Source: a virus
Lineage: Duplodnaviria; Heunggongvirae; Uroviricota; Caudoviricetes
Virus record (IMG/VR): IMGVR_UViG_2690316210_000008
DNA: 5,787 nt
Reading direction: 5' to 3' (one strand)
The position numbers and the translations under genes are program-made. Positions within the stretch are counted from its first letter, which is position 1; each line of letters begins with the position of its first letter. Under the pieces are notes generated by a model, which was given only the letters and a program-made list of their open reading frames with translations, did not search any database and was not told the DNA's origin. Shown here one piece after another: positions 1 to 5,787 of the stretch.

Positions 1-109
1 GGCATCCGCATAGTGCGCTGGGTTATCGCTCGCCACGGGAATATCTGTGGCAGCGGGCTTGTAATGGGTTAAGTGATAACAGATGTCTGGAAATATAGGG
101 GCAAATCCA
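1..109 (+). mobile_element. Right terminus (last ~109 bp, including the terminal inverted repeat) of an IS2 insertion sequence (IS3 family); the element body lies upstream of the window
   Basis: Seen: bases 68-109 read GTTAAGTGATAACAGATGTCTGGAAATATAGGGGCAAATCCA, which matches my recollection of the IS2 right inverted repeat ending ...GGGGCAAATCCA. Frame 3 of bases 3-98 encodes ...[25 protein letters not shown], the typical C-terminal tail of the IS2 OrfB transposase. Established: IS2 termini are 5'-TA...CA-3'. No database search was possible, so identity rests on recalled sequence. Confidence 0.8.
3..98 (+). CDS. insD: IS2 transposase OrfB (InsD), extreme C-terminal end; 5' part outside the window
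   Basis: Seen: frame 3 is open from the window edge to TAG at 96-98 and encodes [31 protein letters not shown]. Established: the ...HSALGY.SP.EY... tail is characteristic of IS3-family (rve/DDE) transposases. Only 32 codons are visible. Confidence 0.7.
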
Positions 110-1401
110 CTAATGCCGATGCTAAAATTGATGCAATGCACAAGCAAATCACTACCGAAACAGGTAAAACCGTTCAAGCCTCAGCCGATACTCTCAAGAG
201 TCTGATTGCTACCAGTGAGCAAGCTAGCTCAACTAAGATTGATCAGGTTAAAGCTGAACTGAAAGGCGATATCACCAAAGAAGTTAGCGCCTCCGCTACT
301 ACCCTGAAACAAGCAATTGCTACCAGTGAGGCAGCAAGCGCAAGCAAGATTGATCAAGTTCGGGTAGAAATGGATGGCAAGATTGCTGGTGTGAATCAGG
401 AAGCAGATGTAAAAATCGATGCTTTGAAGGGAACCATTAACAGCAAATATAATCTGGCAGTTAATGCAGATGGTCGCGTGGCTGGTATTCACATGAGCGC
501 AACCAACGATCCGGCGCAACCGACGAGAATCATCTTTAATGCTGATAAAATCGCGGTAGCTCCACAGAACGGGTCGGGGGTATGTCCGTTTGGTATCGAA
601 GGTAACAAGGTTTATCTCGATAATGCCATGATTCGTAATGCTGCAATTGGTACAGCCCAGATTAATGATGCGGCGATTACCACGGCTAAAATCGGCAATG
701 CTGCAATTAACAGCGCGAAGATTCAGGACGGGGCAATCACTAATGCCAAGATCGTAAACGGTGCAATTGATAACGCTAAAATCGGTAACTATATCCAGTC
801 TTCCAACTGGAATGGATCTACCGGATGGCATATCAACAAGAATGGCTCTGCTACGTTCATGAACGCAACCGTTAAAGGTAATATCACGGCTGATTCTGGT
901 ACTCTGAACAACGTCACGATTAACTCTAGCTGTGTTATTAAGGGTATGCTTGAAGCTACTCAGGTTAAGGGTGATTTCGTTAAGGTGATTGGTCGTAAGT
1001 TCCCGCACCGTGATGTTAACGTTGATAATGGTTATGCTGGCTATCCACAAGGTACAGTGACCGTTCGCGTTGAAGATGATCACAAGTTCGATCGTCAAAT
1101 CGTTATTCCGGCAATTAGTTTTGGTGGATTGCGAGCGCGTGAAGGGTCGAACGGTAATACGTTTTACGACACCTGTCGCCTTATTGTTCGTAAGAATGGG
1201 TCAGAGTTGTATAATAGGGCTTATGGCGGCAATACTGGTCTTTACTCTGGTGTTATTGATATGCCAGCGGGTAAGGGTGCTGTAACTCTAACGTTTGAAG
1301 TACACTCAAGCGCAATCAACAACTGGACGCCTAGCACATGGATCAGTGATTTAACTGTAATGGTAACTAAAAAAGCCACTACGGGTATTACTGTTTCTTA
1401 A
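73..1401 (+). CDS. Phage tail fibre / host-specificity (receptor-binding) protein, C-terminal portion; the listed GTG start at 73 lies inside the IS2 terminus, so the native gene is probably 5'-interrupted and native sequence begins about base 110
   Basis: Seen: 442-codon ORF ending TAA 1399-1401. It has two full 37-aa tandem repeats built around a KIDQV motif, five consecutive 10-aa repeats of form I-x-[ND]-[AG]-A-I-x-x-A-K (residues 187-236), and an N/G/T/S-rich C-terminal domain. Inference: this composition and repeat architecture is typical of phage tail fibres. Codons 1-12 are encoded by IS2-derived sequence and there is no Shine-Dalgarno before 73 or before the first in-frame ATG at 136. 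Confidence 0.7.
175..396 (+). repeat. Two tandem ~111-nt (37-codon) imperfect direct repeats inside the tail-fibre gene, with partial units flanking (about 124-420)
   Basis: Seen: AAGATTGAT (K-I-D) recurs at 235-243 and 346-354, exactly 111 nt apart, within aligned units ...[20 protein letters not shown]... and ...[20 protein letters not shown]...; further KID motifs at codons 18 and 114. Confidence 0.8.
631..789 (+). repeat. Five tandem 30-nt (10-codon) repeats encoding I-x-[ND]-[AG]-A-I-x-x-A-K inside the tail-fibre gene
   Basis: Seen in translation: [10 protein letters not shown] / [10 protein letters not shown] / [10 protein letters not shown] / [10 protein letters not shown] / [10 protein letters not shown], then IGN. 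Confidence 0.8.
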
Positions 1402-1420
1402 AAATTTAATTTTAATAATT

Positions 1421-1460
1421 AATCCCGCTTAATTCTTTAGAGTTAGGCGGGATTATTTTT
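1421..1460 (+). terminator. Putative rho-independent terminator after the tail-fibre gene
   Basis: Seen: AATCCCGC (1421-1428) pairs with GCGGGATT (1447-1454) around an 18-nt loop, followed by ATTTTTAT (1455-1462). The long loop lowers confidence. Confidence 0.45.
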
Positions 1461-1507
1461 ATCTAAATAATTTTGCCATTAAACTATATAAAAATATCGG
1501 GGGCGTA

Positions 1508-1786
1508 ATGACTGAAATTATATATGGCGGTATCGGTGTTATCGCCTTAATTTGTGGTGGATTATGGAGACTTCACCGAAATCAATTAGCCACAGAAAAT
1601 AGATTGTCGAAATTAGAATCCAATGATGCATTGTTTAATCAGAAGTTTGAAACAATGCAGAATAACCACGATCAGATATCCGAGAGAGTTTATCGCATGG
1701 AACAAACCCTTCACGGTATAGAAAAGAAAGTGGTTGCGATGGACGCTAAATTTGACCAAGTTATCGATTTACTCAGACAAAAATAA
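1508..1786 (+). CDS. Small membrane protein with one N-terminal transmembrane helix and a coiled-coil domain (92 aa); possibly a spanin-like or holin-accessory lysis protein
   Basis: Seen: ATG 1508 preceded by GGGGG (1499-1503). Hydrophobic stretch IIYGGIGVIALICGGLW, then a charged heptad-like segment (LSKLESNDALFNQKFETMQNNHDQISERVYRMEQTLHGIEKKVVAMDAKFDQVIDLL). Inference: this topology resembles i-spanins or antiholins; no sequence-level match was recognised. Confidence 0.6.
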   Translation: MTEIIYGGIGVIALICGGLWRLHRNQLATENRLSKLESNDALFNQKFETMQNNHDQISERVYRMEQTLHGIEKKVVAMDAKFDQVIDLLRQK

Positions 1787-1805
1787 TAATAAAAGGGGTG
1801 AATAT

Positions 1806-1976
1806 ATGAAGAATAAACTTAAGAAATATTTTGGTTATCTCTTGATTGTCGCCCTCACTTATAACGTAGCAATCAGACCTCTGCTTACGTCCTTTGGGCT
1901 TAATCTTCCGGCAATGTCCGTTGATGATGAATTGCTCAGGATGATAGCGGGGGTCTTTTCGTTATTAGGGGGATAA
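1806..1976 (+). CDS. Small hydrophobic membrane protein (56 aa); holin candidate
   Basis: Seen: ATG 1806 with Shine-Dalgarno AGGGGTG (1792-1798); the longer track ORF from 1734 would need a TTG start inside the previous gene. Hydrophobic segments YFGYLLIVALTYNVAI and LLRMIAGVFSLLGG. Stop TAA 1974-1976 sits 1 nt before the next ATG. Confidence 0.55.
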   Translation: MKNKLKKYFGYLLIVALTYNVAIRPLLTSFGLNLPAMSVDDELLRMIAGVFSLLGG

Positions 1977-1977
1977 C

Positions 1978-2661
1978 ATGGCAATCAGTACCAATAAACG
2001 AAACGCTCTAAGGACTAAGAAAGCGTTACGGCAATGGACTGATAAGGCAACCGATACATTCGAAAAGGCGATAGGGGAAGGGGCGATCTTTGCTGCTCGC
2101 GCACTCCAGAAGAAGATTAACAAGAATGTTGATAGACCTACTCGCTGGACTCAGCAAGCTGTAGGTAATACCAACTACAAGAACCGGTCAGGGACCAGAC
2201 ACCAAATCTTCATCAAGGGCGCAAGGGATAAGGACAAGAAGATCGGGAGTCAGGATGACTATCTGAAACACTATTTCGATGGTGGCAAAATCAATAAGCT
2301 AGTGCCAATCGCTAACGGCAAGGTCTTAGACTCCCACGGGAACATTAAGGCCATCAAAGGCGGTAAGATGATGCGTAACATCGAAAACGGCAACTTCATC
2401 AAGATAGAGAACAAGGAAGGGACTTTTATCATGAAGAAGTATAAGCCTAAGAAATCCCGAACCAAACGCGCTAGGAATGGATCGGCGGTGGCAAAACGTC
2501 GCTTAGAGAAACGCACACAGAAACAGAGTAAGCGAATTGTTGCCGTTAAGTCGGATAAAATTTCTACTCGTTATTCGACGCTAGGATCGTGGGAAAGCAA
2601 CGAAGTAATGATGCTTAAGAATATCAATAAGCACATTAAATCACGCATGAAATACGTTTAA
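1978..2661 (+). CDS. Highly basic Lys/Arg/Asn-rich hypothetical protein (227 aa), with an especially basic stretch near the C-terminus (KKYKPKKSRTKRARNGSAVAKRRLEKRTQKQSKR); possible nucleic-acid-binding or virion-internal protein
   Basis: Seen: ATG 1978 preceded by GGGGG (1967-1971); stop TAA 2659-2661; no cysteine; no hydrophobic segment. The function is inferred from composition only. Confidence 0.6.
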   Translation: MAISTNKRNALRTKKALRQWTDKATDTFEKAIGEGAIFAARALQKKINKNVDRPTRWTQQAVGNTNYKNRSGTRHQIFIKGARDKDKKIGSQDDYLKHYFDGGKINKLVPIANGKVLDSHGNIKAIKGGKMMRNIENGNFIKIENKEGTFIMKKYKPKKSRTKRARNGSAVAKRRLEKRTQKQSKRIVAVKSDKISTRYSTLGSWESNEVMMLKNINKHIKSRMKYV

Positions 2662-2671
2662 TCCATAAATA

Positions 2672-2696
2672 CCCTCATAAGAATCTTATGGGGGGG
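2672..2696 (+). promoter_or_regulatory. Stem-loop overlapping the Shine-Dalgarno of the following gene (possible translational control or RNA processing site)
   Basis: Seen: CCCTCATAAG (2672-2681) pairs with CTTATGGGGG (2685-2694), a 10-bp stem with one G-U pair and a 3-nt loop. The stem includes G2691-2694 of the GGGGGG Shine-Dalgarno (2691-2696) for ATG 2703. No T-run follows, so it is not a terminator. Confidence 0.35.
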
Positions 2697-2702
2697 TATA
2701 AC

Positions 2703-3050
2703 ATGGCTAAAAATATTTTCACTGAATTTCCTACTTATCCGGTCGATCAGCTTTCCGGTATTTTTATTAATGGCATTAGCCCTGAATCAATGACCTATGA
2801 TTTTGAGGCGAAGAGAGTCCAACATAAACAATTCAAGCAGATGATCCGCGATGATGGTAATGGGCTAGTGTTTTGTGTTGCGACACTCGCTAAACGTCCT
2901 AAGTATCGCTTTCGTGTAGGGCAGGAGATTGATGTAGTTAATCCTTACAACTTCAATTGTATTGGCGATGCACGAGCGGTATGTGTAGGCACAACTAACT
3001 ACTATATCAAGGGACTCCGCTTTACCGGGTATCTCTTCCAGTACCTTTAA
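2703..3050 (+). CDS. Hypothetical protein (115 aa), no recognisable domain
   Basis: Seen: ATG 2703 with GGGGGG 6 nt upstream is preferred over the track start at ATG 2688, which has no Shine-Dalgarno. Stop TAA 3048-3050. Protein MAKNIFTEFPTYPVDQLSGIF... has no motif I recognise. Confidence 0.55.
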   Translation: MAKNIFTEFPTYPVDQLSGIFINGISPESMTYDFEAKRVQHKQFKQMIRDDGNGLVFCVATLAKRPKYRFRVGQEIDVVNPYNFNCIGDARAVCVGTTNYYIKGLRFTGYLFQYL

Positions 3051-3059
3051 GGGGGTAAT

Positions 3060-3413
3060 ATGATCTCTCGTTACTTTCGACGTAAAGAATTTGAATGCAA
3101 ATGTGGGAAGTGCGGACAGGATACCGTAGACGCTGAATTACTGGCAATTCTTGAGGATGTACGCGAATACTTCGGGAAACCAGTAGTTATTAACAGTGCT
3201 AACCGTTGTCCGGCACACAATAAGAAAGTTGGTGGCGCTTCTCGTTCGATTCATATCACGGGCAAGGTCGCAGATATTGTAGTGAAAGGTGTCTCTCCTG
3301 ATATCGTTCACTCTTATCTTGATAGCAAATATCCCGATCAGTATGGTTTAGGCAAATACAAAACCTTTACGCATATCGATTCTAGAGGATATAAGGCTAG
3401 ATGGAATGGATAA
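3060..3413 (+). CDS. Zinc metallopeptidase of the peptidase M15 (M15A/DUF882-like) family; probable phage endolysin (peptidoglycan peptidase)
   Basis: Seen: ATG 3060 preceded by GGGGG (3051-3055). Motifs RRKEFECKCGKCG near the N-terminus, SIHITGKVAD (His-x6-Asp) and THID. Established: H-x6-D plus a downstream H-x-D/H is the zinc-binding signature of M15 peptidases, a family that includes phage endolysins. No signal peptide is evident, so export would need a holin. Confidence 0.8.
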   Translation: MISRYFRRKEFECKCGKCGQDTVDAELLAILEDVREYFGKPVVINSANRCPAHNKKVGGASRSIHITGKVADIVVKGVSPDIVHSYLDSKYPDQYGLGKYKTFTHIDSRGYKARWNG

Positions 3414-4106
3414 AATTAAAGCGCCTCTAGTGGGCGCTTTTTTGTTTTTTTCACGAGGCTGTTTACACGCAGATTGCCATGTACTTACAACAATCAGGCG
3501 ATCGCCTACATGCTTACTAGTACCACTCATGATAGTATGAATTGCCTCATAAGGAAACTGGCGATAATCAACAAAATCATCACGCATTTGCAGCACTAGC
3601 GACGTGGTAGGAACGATGATCAGCACTTTCCCTTCATAGTTCTCTAAGTACCAGCGAGACAACATACAAGCAATCGCAGATTTACCAGCGGACGTAGGCA
3701 AAACTAACATTCCACGTTTATGATGAATACCTTCAAAGACAGCCTTTGATTGATACCAATGCGGGGTGATCCTGTTAGCACCGGAATATAATTCCAGATC
3801 ATTACACCATTTTGTAATTTCTTCTTCTGTAACTTGTTCTTTTTCGAATAAGCGAGGGTCTACCCATACGCTATATCCCATATTTTTAGCGAAGATTCCC
3901 ACGGTTTTAGTTAGGCCGATTGGTAGTCTATTTTCATAGGTAAAAAGTCTTATGCGACCATCCCAATTGGAATACTTAAATTTTTTGCTAAATCTAGCTC
4001 CCTCAACTTCAAAGGAAAAGTAATCCCTTAGTTCCATCGCTATAGAATCAGAGCAATCAATTTTAACGAAACTATAGTCTTGAAAATGAATTTTAATATC
4101 TGGCAT
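3348..4106 (-). pseudogene. uvsW: N-terminal ~220 codons of a T4 UvsW-type SF2 DNA helicase, truncated after motifs I and Ia; the final ~33 codons are unrelated read-through into the antisense of the terminator and endolysin 3' end
   Basis: Seen: P-loop motif LPTSAGKS and motif Ia VLIIVPTTSL are present, but no DExH box or later motifs; the ORF ends ...STWQSACKQPRE then KNKKAPTRGALILSIPSSLISSRIDMRKGFVFA*. Recalled: the N-terminus (MPDIKIHFQDYSFVKIDC...WDGRIRL...PHWYQ..AVFEG) closely parallels T4 UvsW as I remember it, where DECH follows roughly 10 residues after KQPKEW. The likely start is ATG 4104-4106 (Shine-Dalgarno GGAG 8 nt upstream, overlapping the upstream stop as TAATG), not the track's GTG at 4115. 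Confidence 0.7.
3418..3450 (+). terminator. Strong rho-independent terminator after the peptidase gene, likely bidirectional
   Basis: Seen: AAAGCGCC (3418-3425), 7-nt loop TCTAGTG, GGCGCTTT (3433-3440), then TTTTTTGTTTTTTT to 3450. On the minus strand the same hairpin is followed by TTTAATTTTAT. Confidence 0.8.
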
Positions 4107-4675
4107 TAGTTCCACTCCACACTTGCAATATTCTTGATGTTATTCACTTCCTTCTCATTGAAAACGAATGTCTCTGTTTTGCCGTATTCAATCCCGCCTA
4201 TACCTACATCCAGTAATCTCTTGATTGCTCTTTCAGTGGCTAGTGCATGTTTCATTGATGGCATTTCACCAGCGTAGACAATATCAAAGTTATGACCGGG
4301 ATTGCGTACACCCAGATTAATGCGTCGCTTGATGATTGACTTTGTTACACCAAATTTACCAATATCCCCTGATTTCATTACATAGAGATAAGGCACACCC
4401 GCTTTATATTGAAAGTAATCACTTTTGAGACAAGCACAGCGTTTACCTTCATTAAGCAGGTTAGTAGCTGATTTGTCGGCTCTATTACCACATCGGGTAC
4501 ATGTAAGAGCAATTCTTGAATGAAGCCCTTTAAACTCACCCAGAAAGCCATGAAAGACTAACGGTAAGTCATTATCTTTGATGTGAGTCAGAATGCGTTG
4601 TTCTAATGCCGATGGAGTTACAGCACGGGAGGATTTAGGAGTAAAAACAATATCTTTAGCCATTACTGGAATCAT
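4106..4675 (-). CDS. Protein with a Cys-rich zinc-ribbon-like segment and a C-terminal T5orf172/GIY-YIG-superfamily-like domain (189 aa); homing-endonuclease-like selfish gene candidate
   Basis: Seen: ATG 4673-4675 with GAGGT 4 nt upstream; stop TAA 4106-4108. Motifs C-x2-C-x16-C-x-C (CTRCGN...KRCAC) and YLYVMKSGDIGKFGVT...RR. Inference: the Y-hydrophobic ... K-F/I-G-V-T ... R pattern resembles the T5orf172 (GIY-YIG clan) domain. The N-terminus (AKDI.F ... GFLGEFKG) is paralogous to the gene at 4831. Confidence 0.65.
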   Translation of the reverse strand: MIPVMAKDIVFTPKSSRAVTPSALEQRILTHIKDNDLPLVFHGFLGEFKGLHSRIALTCTRCGNRADKSATNLLNEGKRCACLKSDYFQYKAGVPYLYVMKSGDIGKFGVTKSIIKRRINLGVRNPGHNFDIVYAGEMPSMKHALATERAIKRLLDVGIGGIEYGKTETFVFNEKEVNNIKNIASVEWN

Positions 4676-4830
4676 ATAGACCTCACTTTTTTAACTTATA
4701 GGCATAACCTCAATATGGTTGGTTTGTAACATTAGGGTCGCATATTATACACATCCAGATAGAGAATGCAATAGCAAGACAATTTTCTCTAATAAATAGT
4801 AGTGAGCTTATTATTTTAGAGGAAACTACT
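4676..4830. promoter_or_regulatory. 155-bp AT-rich divergent intergenic region, presumed to hold promoters for both flanking genes
   Basis: Seen: no ORF; the flanking genes diverge. Candidate -10-like hexamers are present (TATTAT 4743-4748, ATAAAT 4792-4797) but I could not pair them convincingly with -35 elements. Shine-Dalgarno AGAGGA (4818-4823) precedes ATG 4831. Confidence 0.3.
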
Positions 4831-5787
4831 ATGAAACTAGCATTTGCCAAAGATATTGATTTTGTTAAAAGAACGAATGGAAAATCACCTTTAGAGATAG
4901 AACAAGAGATAATCGATAAGGTGTCGCCAACCGGATTAATCTATTCAGGATTAATTCTTCCCTTCAAAGGTAGTATGGGTAAGTATCGCGTAACTCACCC
5001 AGACACAGGGGAGTTTAAGGATTATGCAATTAAGCATTTCAATAACTTCACCGGAACAGAATTGTTTTCTACCGAAAAGGCCGCATTAGTCTCGATTAAA
5101 AGGAAGTGCGAGAAATTAGGGAAAGAATTTATAGAATGGGATGGAGGCTGGAAAGGATTTGCAAAAACCAAAGCCGTGATTATGTGCAAAGAGCATGACA
5201 GAACATTAAACCCAAAACTGGTTTATGCACTAAAAGATGATGTTCCTTTGGCGTGTTCCGGTTGTCGCGGCGATACTGTGCACAAGAAATCTAATGGCGG
5301 TAAGACTAGACATGAAGTAAGACAGGAAAAACAAGCAATCATCGAATCCCGTTGCGAAAAGATGAATTACACTTTCAAGGGATTCTCCGGTGATTTACGG
5401 TACTCATATGCAACAAAATTCGTTATTCACTGCAACAAGCATAATGTTACATGGGAATCAACGAAATGCACTATCCATAAGTTTACTTGCCCCGAATGCA
5501 GAAAAGAACAGTTGATTCAGCTTTCCAACCGTACATACACTGATAAGGCTAATTTCTATATTCAATTATTAGATGACAAATTTATTAAATTTGGTGTTAC
5601 CACACGAGATATTAAAATCAGGATGTATGAGCAAACCAGAAAGAGCAATTTTAACCATAAATTAATCTTCCTTCATGAGTTCGCGGAAGGATGGAAAGCA
5701 TTAGACCTAGAGCATGAAGTAAAACAACGCTTTATGAAGTGGTCAACAAAAACTGGCCACCGAGTTAGAGTTTTTCCAGTATCGATT
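4831..5787 (+). CDS. Protein with two Cys/His zinc-ribbon repeats and a T5orf172/GIY-YIG-like domain, paralogous to the minus-strand gene at 4106-4675; 3' end beyond the window
   Basis: Seen: I translated ATG 4831 through base 5787, 319 sense codons with no stop. The supplied ORF track omits it because the ORF runs off the window. Shine-Dalgarno AGAGGA 7 nt upstream. Two repeats ([KR]CEK..., C-x2-H-x15-20-C-x2-C): CKEHDRTLNPKLVYALKDDVPLACSGC and CNKHNVTWESTKCTIHKFTCPEC. Then FYIQLLDDKFIKFGVTTRDIKIR..., which is T5orf172-like. The N-terminus (AKDIDF ... GLILPFKG) aligns with the minus-strand paralogue. Confidence 0.75.
   Translation, partial: MKLAFAKDIDFVKRTNGKSPLEIEQEIIDKVSPTGLIYSGLILPFKGSMGKYRVTHPDTGEFKDYAIKHFNNFTGTELFSTEKAALVSIKRKCEKLGKEFIEWDGGWKGFAKTKAVIMCKEHDRTLNPKLVYALKDDVPLACSGCRGDTVHKKSNGGKTRHEVRQEKQAIIESRCEKMNYTFKGFSGDLRYSYATKFVIHCNKHNVTWESTKCTIHKFTCPECRKEQLIQLSNRTYTDKANFYIQLLDDKFIKFGVTTRDIKIRMYEQTRKSNFNHKLIFLHEFAEGWKALDLEHEVKQRFMKWSTKTGHRVRVFPVSI

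Follow-up and report, generated by a model that had tools for sequence, protein, structure and literature searches.

The stretch of DNA analyzed here (5787 nucleotides, nt; hereafter the window) is held in IMG/VR as the virus record IMGVR_UViG_2690316210_000008 and contains, from left to right, the end of an insertion sequence (IS), the 3' part of a phage tail-tip gene, four small open reading frames (ORFs), a lysis peptidase, a truncated helicase gene, two nuclease-like genes that we call A and B, and the end of a second IS. An exact-protein look-up identified it as the entire 5787-bp draft contig CXAQ01000190.1 of assembly GCA_001261215.1 (Shigella sonnei), in reverse orientation, and its proteins carry the NCBI name Shigella sonnei. 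The window is a piece of a bacterial short-read assembly and not a phage genome. We are confident that it represents one arm of a temperate prophage of S. sonnei, with an inherited helicase truncation, two recent IS hits and a recombining cargo region. The contig would be the right arm of a siphovirus-type prophage, which runs from the tail-tip gene through the four small genes and the endolysin into an accessory cargo region. A preliminary description of the window had proposed a decaying or mosaic phage locus, suggestive of a defective prophage or phage-derived island, and we did find mosaic, damaged prophage DNA in a bacterial chromosome, as the contig comes from an S. sonnei assembly and its relatives are chromosomal; the complete, infective phage genome that it had named as the opposite case does not apply to this contig. 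The features that bear most directly on our reading are the following (aa, amino acids).

1..109, plus strand: right-hand end of IS2, with the last transposase codons and the terminal inverted repeat, stopping exactly at the IS terminus.
110..1401, plus strand: 3' part (1292 nt, codon 829 to stop) of a lambda-J-like tail-tip/central-fibre gene.
3447..3450, no strand: deletion junction, where extra T residues separate the T-tract of the terminator from codon 219 of the helicase.
3451..4106, minus strand: first 656 nt (219 codons) of a uvsW-type helicase gene (UvsW_N, 1.2e-38; ResIII; DEAD).
3451..3923, minus strand: Krischvirus-type patch (gene nt 184-656), with 13 mismatches in 473 nt to JK32 (97%).
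4106..4675, minus strand: gene A, intact, nuclease-like, 189 aa, CapR zinc finger and putative T5orf172 (GIY-YIG-like) domain (PHROG 681 endonuclease, 1.8e-18).
4831..5734, plus strand: gene B, CapR/T5orf172 nuclease-like, first 301 of 392 codons (PHROG 681, 7.7e-33; CapR, 8e-9).
5735..5787, plus strand: terminal 53 nt of an IS911-family element (IS3 family), beginning TGAAGTGGTCAACAAAAACTGGCCACC.

The nature of the element was read from its relatives. In a collection of 5426 complete E. coli genomes, which does not include Shigella genomes, the locus was found at 85-91% DNA identity in a few dozen chromosomes. In the sequences that we number L001/L005, L002, L021-L024 and L025 (the last a 194-kb metagenomic E. 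coli scaffold), it makes up the right arm of an element of ~37 kb, inserted in ycdX next to the csg operon; L010, L012 and L013 are among the S. sonnei and sister contigs that were also compared. The family element encodes a terminase, portal, capsid, tail tube, T-even-like fibre, gp38-like adhesin, tape-measure-like protein and tail-tip protein, and behind the tail-tip gene follow four small ORFs, the endolysin, a variable region and a 559-aa large serine recombinase. A search for an integrase and attachment sites, suggested in the preliminary description, was answered by the relatives: the split ycdX, the serine recombinase and the virion genes of an integrated prophage were all found in L001/L005, L002 and L025, and none of the three diagnostic traits lies within the window. 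IMG/VR also holds proviruses of 35-45 kb with the same gene A.

No close sequenced phage was found, the capsid protein being at most 43% identical to any, and at the DNA level our phage collection gave matches only to uvsW and IS2 and none to the structural or lysis genes. No cultured relative could therefore be named. The ~37-kb ycdX prophage family of E. coli and Shigella is undescribed, and in the library of papers searched, nothing relevant turned up on a prophage in ycdX or on prophage-borne uvsW.

At the left end of the window, bases 1-109 agree at 108 of 109 positions with the final 109 nt of the IS2A copy (IS3 family) in E. coli MG1655 (L009, 1283-1391; the element spans 61-1391), and the right inverted repeat matches that of IS2 and ends at its annotated last base. 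The tail-tip fragment that follows matches the Pfam families Phage_Tail_Tip (8.8e-24) and Ig_GpJ_C (4.9e-34) as well as the NCBIfam family lambda_TipJ, covers the fibre region and the C-terminal receptor-binding domain, and is 100% identical in aa sequence to the intact 1258-aa gene of L010, which comes from another S. sonnei sample. Window base 110 corresponds to nt 2486 of the 3777 nt of this gene (codon 829, phase 1). L010 is 99.94% identical to the window over 4653 nt, and its tail-tip gene is uninterrupted and without IS2. Furthermore, the identical junction (28 nt of the IS2 end joined to the tail-tip sequence) was present in L012 (run ERR024606) and L013 (SRR34259919), and an exact search did not find it in the complete E. 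coli genomes. The sequences indicate that the IS2 insertion is real, recent and polymorphic, because other read sets contain its junction and an isolate that is 99.9% identical lacks it.

The tail-tip gene resembles lambda gpJ in its Phage_Tail_Tip and Ig_GpJ_C domains, in its place as the last gene of the tail operon and in the terminator behind it. On the other hand, the window holds only its C-terminal third, and the lambda_TipJ score of 213 bits is far below the cutoff of 1950; the gene is therefore a homologue and not lambda J itself. Entry of IS2 into codon 829 of this essential gene would cut off the N-terminal part of the protein from its fibre and receptor-binding domains and, by analogy with lambda J, should abolish the formation of infectious particles. 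The preliminary description had placed an IS2 in a tail-fibre gene and had seen in the window a defective prophage rather than a virion genome. Both statements hold, the second for this isolate and on the basis of the IS2-broken tail-tip gene only.

Two other properties of this fragment were observed. A GTG at position 73 within the IS2 end opens an in-frame ORF of 73-1401, made up of 12 IS-derived and 429 tail-tip codons, and such a fusion could express the receptor-binding part given outward transcription from IS2. The fragment also contains two internal repeats (window 180-360 and 640-790) that are self-similar in BLAST, the first a duplicated coiled-coil-like unit of ~35 residues (S.A.TLK..IATSE.AS..KIDQV) and the second a run of NAAI..AKI-type heptad-like repeats.

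A second IS, overlooked in the count of two disruptions given earlier, bounds the window on the right (5735-5787). It carries the terminal inverted repeat starting TGAAGTGG, and its 53 nt align to the terminus of an IS911-family element that is annotated in L020 and flanked there by a 3-bp duplication; the same 53 nt occur at 5443 places in 2718 of the complete E. coli genomes. L025 has an intact 392-codon version of gene B, and the window copy matches it at 100% identity for 904 nt before running into the IS; the match to the relatives ends at 5732-5734. Codon 302 of 392 is where the gene is cut, which places the break within the T5orf172/MUG113 domain and ahead of the conserved G(W/Y)(S/T)ET motif, so that an IS911-family element would have entered gene B at this codon and removed the end of the nuclease domain. 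The contigs of L012, L014 and L017 end 28-30 nt into the same IS911-family element, and the same gene B/IS911 junction is therefore implied in all three. The nuclease-like genes had been described as intact, which remains true of the 189-aa gene A and is not true of gene B.

Could these junctions be artefacts of assembly, that is, chimeras of unrelated repeats and phage DNA? Both are found at the ends of the contig, the least reliable parts of a short-read assembly, and only one side of each IS is within the window. However, both IS sequences end exactly at known termini, the junctions recur (IS2 in L012 and L013; IS911 in L012, L014 and L017), and the isolate that lacks IS2 has an uninterrupted gene at exactly that base. 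We give almost no credence to this explanation, and the IS2 junction, for which a chimera had been raised as a concern, is supported by the contigs of both ERR024606 and SRR34259919 and by its precise end at the IS terminus.

IS1, IS2, IS4, IS600 and IS911 are expanded in Shigella, with variation from strain to strain (Hawkey et al. 2020, PMC7373316), and the damage in the window is of the pattern that this expansion predicts. The likeness includes the same IS types, hits in coding sequences, polymorphism among strains and assemblies fragmented at IS copies. In contrast, prophages are not addressed in the main text of that study, and the family to which the window belongs is undescribed. IS1 ends were also found in sister isolates, in L016 at 1-27 (window 5629, inside gene B) and in L010 at 8866-8891 (upstream of a 186-aa tail gene); the prophage has been hit repeatedly, at different places in different S. 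sonnei isolates. IS elements bound the contig on both sides (IS2 on the left, the IS911 family on the right), and it measures 5.8 kb because the short-read assembly broke at both copies. As a separate observation, L013 (SRR34259919) diverges beyond window position 4839, 9 nt into gene B, to GTGTAGCGGTATTAAGCGCAGCTATT (L013 strand, positions 1-26). These 26 nt had no match among the sequences compared, and they may be the end of another mobile element or an allele boundary.

The helicase gene presents a different kind of lesion. The fragment keeps UvsW_N, motif I (Walker A, PTSAGKS), motif Ia and only the first part of ResIII/DEAD. The deletion has removed motifs II-VI and the Helicase_C half; the DECH motif lies at nt 688 of the RB49 gene and the breakpoint at nt 656, 32 nt before it. 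Without motifs II-VI, the ORF cannot be a helicase. Relatives encode a UvsW homologue of 496-497 aa. Window positions 110-3446 correspond to L001 20001-23332, and positions 3450-4874 to L001 24165-25589; the gap between the two alignments means that 832 bp of the helicase 3' end are missing. At the junction, the T-tract of the endolysin terminator is joined to codon 219 (reading GCGCTTTTTTGTT, then TTTT(T), then CACGAGGCTG), and the resulting ORF (4106..3348, minus strand; 252 aa) reads through the terminator and gains 33 unrelated codons antisense to the end of the endolysin gene.

This truncation was present in all ten contigs carrying gene A. The junction peptide (...ACKQPRE/KNKKAPTRGAL...) was found in the E. 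coli sequences P0002, P0003 and P0014, on contigs as long as 202 kb; in a 229-aa variant, the T-run is the only difference. L025, which is 93.8% identical overall to the window, carries the truncated helicase beside an intact 1226-aa tail-tip gene, the 392-aa gene B and the 559-aa recombinase. An exact search for the junction in the complete E. coli genomes was negative. The truncation was evidently inherited with the phage rather than produced by local decay, and evidently tolerated, because E. coli copies with an intact right arm, as far as it was sampled, share this junction. The loss of the 3' 832 bp from an accessory uvsW-type gene would have taken place in an ancestor of the phage sublineage, and the shortened allele would now circulate in such E. 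coli copies. Furthermore, uvsW is absent from L021, L022, L023 and L024, and the helicase is therefore accessory and dispensable for the family.

UvsW is a recombination/repair helicase of T4-type phages and is not replicative. Of the earlier statement that a replication helicase is truncated at a module junction, the truncation at the boundary between the lysis genes and the cargo holds, and the word replication does not, the gene being an accessory UvsW homologue. Nor is the truncation an independent decay event of this locus, as the identical junction and 252-aa product are found in E. coli L025. The picture of two independent disruptions that mark decay is thus correct in having a real IS hit and incorrect in that there are at least three disruptions, one of which is inherited. 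These three lesions would be of two ages: the helicase truncation old and inherited, the IS2 and IS911-family hits recent and host-driven, with both transpositions falling within the IS expansion typical of Shigella.

We considered whether the deletion could be tied to an intein homing site. The window breakpoint lies 32 nt upstream of such a site and the Krischvirus-type patch of L001 ~110 nt downstream, which is suggestive but too loose, and the idea was kept as a lead only. In L029 (5001-7781), a 170-kb Krischvirus-like metagenomic contig (ERZ15610163), uvsW is 'fractured' into three overlapping ORFs in different frames: a 331-aa N-half with VVDE and a Hint/intein N-part, a 308-aa ORF with a TnsA-like nuclease, and a C-half with an intein C-part (...AKN/CHKA). 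This gene is split exactly at motif II (DE/CH), 32 nt from the deletion breakpoint of the window.

The helicase fragment is ~95% identical over 476 nt to uvsW of lytic Krischvirus phages (RB49, JK32, ECD7 and others). It shares UvsW_N and motifs I and Ia with the proteins of RB49 and JK32, and its aa sequence is 90.9% identical to residues 1-219 of RB49 UvsW. It differs from them in lacking motifs II-VI and Helicase_C, in residing in a temperate prophage, in being preceded by a nuclease-like gene and not by the inh intergenic region, and in its 5' 183 nt, which are of a prophage-type lineage (~83% identity to L001 and ~68% to Krischvirus). The Krischvirus-type patch begins behind these 183 nt and reaches right to the deletion junction. 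In L001, such a patch lies elsewhere in the gene (nt 808-1328, with 6 mismatches in 521 to phage Whisky), and in L002 the entire gene is prophage-type. The prophage-type UvsW protein is closest to that of Krischvirus-size phages (AV108, 74.7% aa identity); other T4-type phages give ~50-55%.

Similarly, fragments of neighbouring Krischvirus genes were found in other family members: a uvsY tail in L002 (15349-15540), with 64 residues 100% identical to RB49 UvsY; a uvsW.1 piece and an inh piece in L023 (4001-4510); inh pieces in L021 (12389-12646) and L024 (4001-4418); a hoc-like piece in L022 (9894-10224); and uvsW in L001 (23331-24821). All of them belong to one ~5-kb Krischvirus neighbourhood, with patches of 97-99% nt identity, and their place is invariably the interval from the endolysin terminator to the serine recombinase, next to highly divergent CapR/T5orf172 genes. 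DNA of this neighbourhood was detected in 34 of the 5426 genomes and was always chromosomal.

Genes A and B belong to these CapR/T5orf172 genes. The CapR zinc-finger domain scores 24.4 bits in gene A (cutoff 24.2; 3.3e-5) and 36 bits in gene B; the conserved T5orf172-type motifs of gene A align, alongside a Pfam score below the cutoff, and the T5orf172 domain of gene B is cut by the IS911-family element. Gene A is 91-94% identical in aa sequence in the relatives, and its stop overlaps the helicase start (TAATG). Every variant examined had one to three CapR/T5orf172 genes at the cargo position, with alleles sharing only 26-57% identity, so that presence or absence of highly divergent alleles at one position is combined with tracts of high identity nearby. 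The best phage homologue of gene B (32% aa identity) stands beside uvsW in the Krischvirus phages JK32 and Whisky, which carry a 361-aa CapR/T5orf172-like gene between uvsW and uvsW.1 (L006 2020-3105 and L007 2020-3105). RB49 and G2248 are without this insertion, and other T4-type genomes likewise annotate homing endonucleases adjoining uvsW. Close homologues of A or B were found only in the same prophage family, and none in T4-type genomes or T4-type contigs of IMG/VR; a T4-type phage as the source of the two genes was not shown.

Proteins with CapR and T5orf172 domains have been described as homing endonucleases that are enriched in phages and located near essential genes (Barth, Dunham & Seed 2023, PMC10448857). 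They occur at the borders of exchanged tracts, including exchanges between a phage and an integrated satellite (PMC10448857), and CapR-domain proteins, among them the PLE-encoded CapR, are used in phage-satellite conflict (PMC8096241, PMC10448857). Genes A and B resemble the proteins described in these two papers in having one or more CapR fingers followed by a putative T5orf172/GIY-YIG-like domain, in the extreme divergence of their alleles at one position and in standing at the edge of exchanged tracts. They differ in that they lie in the cargo of an integrated temperate prophage, beside scraps of a lytic phage, and in that gene A falls under the Pfam T5orf172 cutoff and gene B is truncated by the IS911-family element.

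From this arrangement, we infer that the cargo region is a nuclease-associated recombination hot spot. The 97-99% patches may be gene-conversion tracts that arose when the prophage met an infecting Krischvirus, and the nuclease genes may promote such exchange. Import is the direction that we infer, since dozens of phage genomes have the patches in continuity with Krischvirus-type flanks, whereas in the prophage they are confined to sublineages. A further-reaching version, which we consider rather unlikely, is that the cargo region is an arena of two-way traffic with lytic Krischvirus phages, amounting to a nuclease-driven, sequence-targeted prophage interference against that genus. Here, the CapR/T5orf172 nucleases may cut or home into the uvsY-uvsW-inh region of the infecting phage, and the uvsW, uvsY, inh and hoc fragments of the prophage may serve as homology arms or represent repair scars.

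Could the truncated UvsW, translationally coupled to gene A, be a working module against infecting Krischvirus, acting as a dominant-negative protein, a decoy or a homology arm? The UvsW fragment and the T5orf172 nuclease could then interfere with or invade the incoming phage. Among diverged copies in E. coli and Shigella, the truncated allele shows several aa substitutions and yet its frame has stayed open, the helicase start overlaps the stop of gene A, and the retained part consists of the UvsW_N DNA-binding domain and Walker A; in addition, the cargo region repeatedly holds Krischvirus fragments beside T5orf172 genes, and CapR-domain proteins serve in phage-satellite conflict (PMC8096241, PMC10448857). 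However, the 33 C-terminal codons are read-through junk that varies with the length of the T-run, as in the 229-aa variant, and the relatives carry plainly non-functional scraps (the 64-aa uvsY tail and the inh and hoc pieces), so that retention of a fragment needs no function. A search with PADLOC gave no known defence system and only weak, generic similarity of the helicase (PbeA 9e-7, HamB), with no match for A, B or the small ORFs. We regard such a module as very unlikely.

The remaining features of the window lie between the tail-tip gene and the helicase.

1420..1455, plus strand: terminator-like hairpin 3' of the tail-tip gene, a 16-pair stem followed by a T-run.
1508..1786, plus strand: ORF of 92 aa, with the same length and 91-100% aa identity in L001, L002, L021, L025 and L010.
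1806..1976, plus strand: ORF of 56 aa, hydrophobic by inspection, with 87-100% aa identity in relatives.
1978..2661, plus strand: basic ORF of 227 aa, a core gene, with the same length and 95-100% aa identity in relatives.
2703..3050, plus strand: ORF of 115 aa, a core gene, with 83-100% aa identity in relatives.
3060..3413, plus strand: M15-family peptidase, presumed endolysin (Peptidase_M15_3, 9.4e-28; PHROG 894 endolysin, 5.1e-41).
3418..3440, strandless: bidirectional terminator hairpin, detected on both strands.

The lysis peptidase had been called intact, and this was confirmed: the Pfam match spans the whole M15 profile, the zinc ligands Hx6D...H are present (SIHITGKVAD...FTHID), and the protein is full length and collinear in all relatives. 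On inspection, the 92-aa ORF shows a hydrophobic segment at the N terminus and a coiled coil behind it, with only weak coiled-coil matches in Pfam, and may possibly be related to lysis. The 56-aa ORF had no family match in Pfam or PHROG, the 227-aa ORF none in Pfam, PHROG, PADLOC or NCBIfam, and the 115-aa ORF no family match; scans with Rfam, NCBIfam and PADLOC gave no RNA family, specific family or defence system beyond the matches mentioned here. The four small ORFs are likewise collinear with the relatives, and they and the endolysin have equal lengths and 76-100% aa identity in every family member examined. The small ORFs are core genes and not cargo, because they are present in every member of the family. 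Family alignments without the helicase all end at position 3446, and the terminator at 3418-3440 separates the conserved lysis module from the variable cargo region.

This conservation bears on a reading, put forward in the preliminary description, of the locus as a phage-derived island that retains selected genes (lysin, nuclease-like genes and possibly the small cargo genes); taken further, such an island would be domesticated, with selection maintaining these genes and with its structural and replication functions in decay. In its favour, the endolysin is intact, as are gene A and the four small ORFs, and an essential structural gene is broken. However, gene B is itself cut by the IS911-family element, and the small ORFs are shared by the whole family. 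The IS2 is polymorphic among 99.9%-identical isolates, which makes the damage very recent and the intact genes merely ones not yet hit. With 0-3 substitutions between them, the S. sonnei copies give no signal of purifying selection; at 99.9-100% identity, there is no power to detect selection. Selective retention is unsupported, and we consider such an island highly improbable.

Elsewhere in the family element, L001 carries at 7971-12622 a long tail-fibre gene and an annotated 'receptor recognizing protein Gp38' like the T-even adhesin; the Gp38/fibre genes form a second T-even-related module of the family, beside the uvsW region. The annotation of the ~37-kb element (L005 599-7295 and L001 26795-29769) shows no recognisable replication gene other than the accessory uvsW. 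The early region is only ~7 kb long, with a Rha-family regulator, small hypothetical genes and a 1.4-kb annotation-free stretch (L005 3452-4837).

Several points weigh against our reading of the window as an IS-hit prophage arm with an inherited helicase truncation and a recombining cargo region. ERR024606 may be the same isolate as the assembly, in which case the independent support for the IS2 junction comes mainly from SRR34259919. The window holds one junction per IS, and a simple insertion with target-site duplication is therefore inseparable from an IS-mediated deletion or inversion. The term defective depends on the tail-tip gene, and the remaining prophage of this isolate lies outside the window. 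The T5orf172 match of gene A is weak (17.8 bits against a Pfam cutoff of 20). Ordinary homologous recombination, with no nuclease involved, could also yield the Krischvirus-like patches. Finally, virion formation by the prophage family and nuclease activity of A and B are predicted from sequence.

An IS-damaged prophage in an IS-rich pathogen is in itself a routine finding. It carries a caution, since a contig bounded by IS elements and an inherited truncated allele can each mimic stepwise local decay. As a by-product, the analysis provides direct evidence, at the sequence level and in an undescribed prophage family, that virulent and temperate phages have recombined recently. Lysogens of this family challenged with RB49- and JK32-type phages would offer a tractable system for T5orf172-mediated exchange or exclusion.

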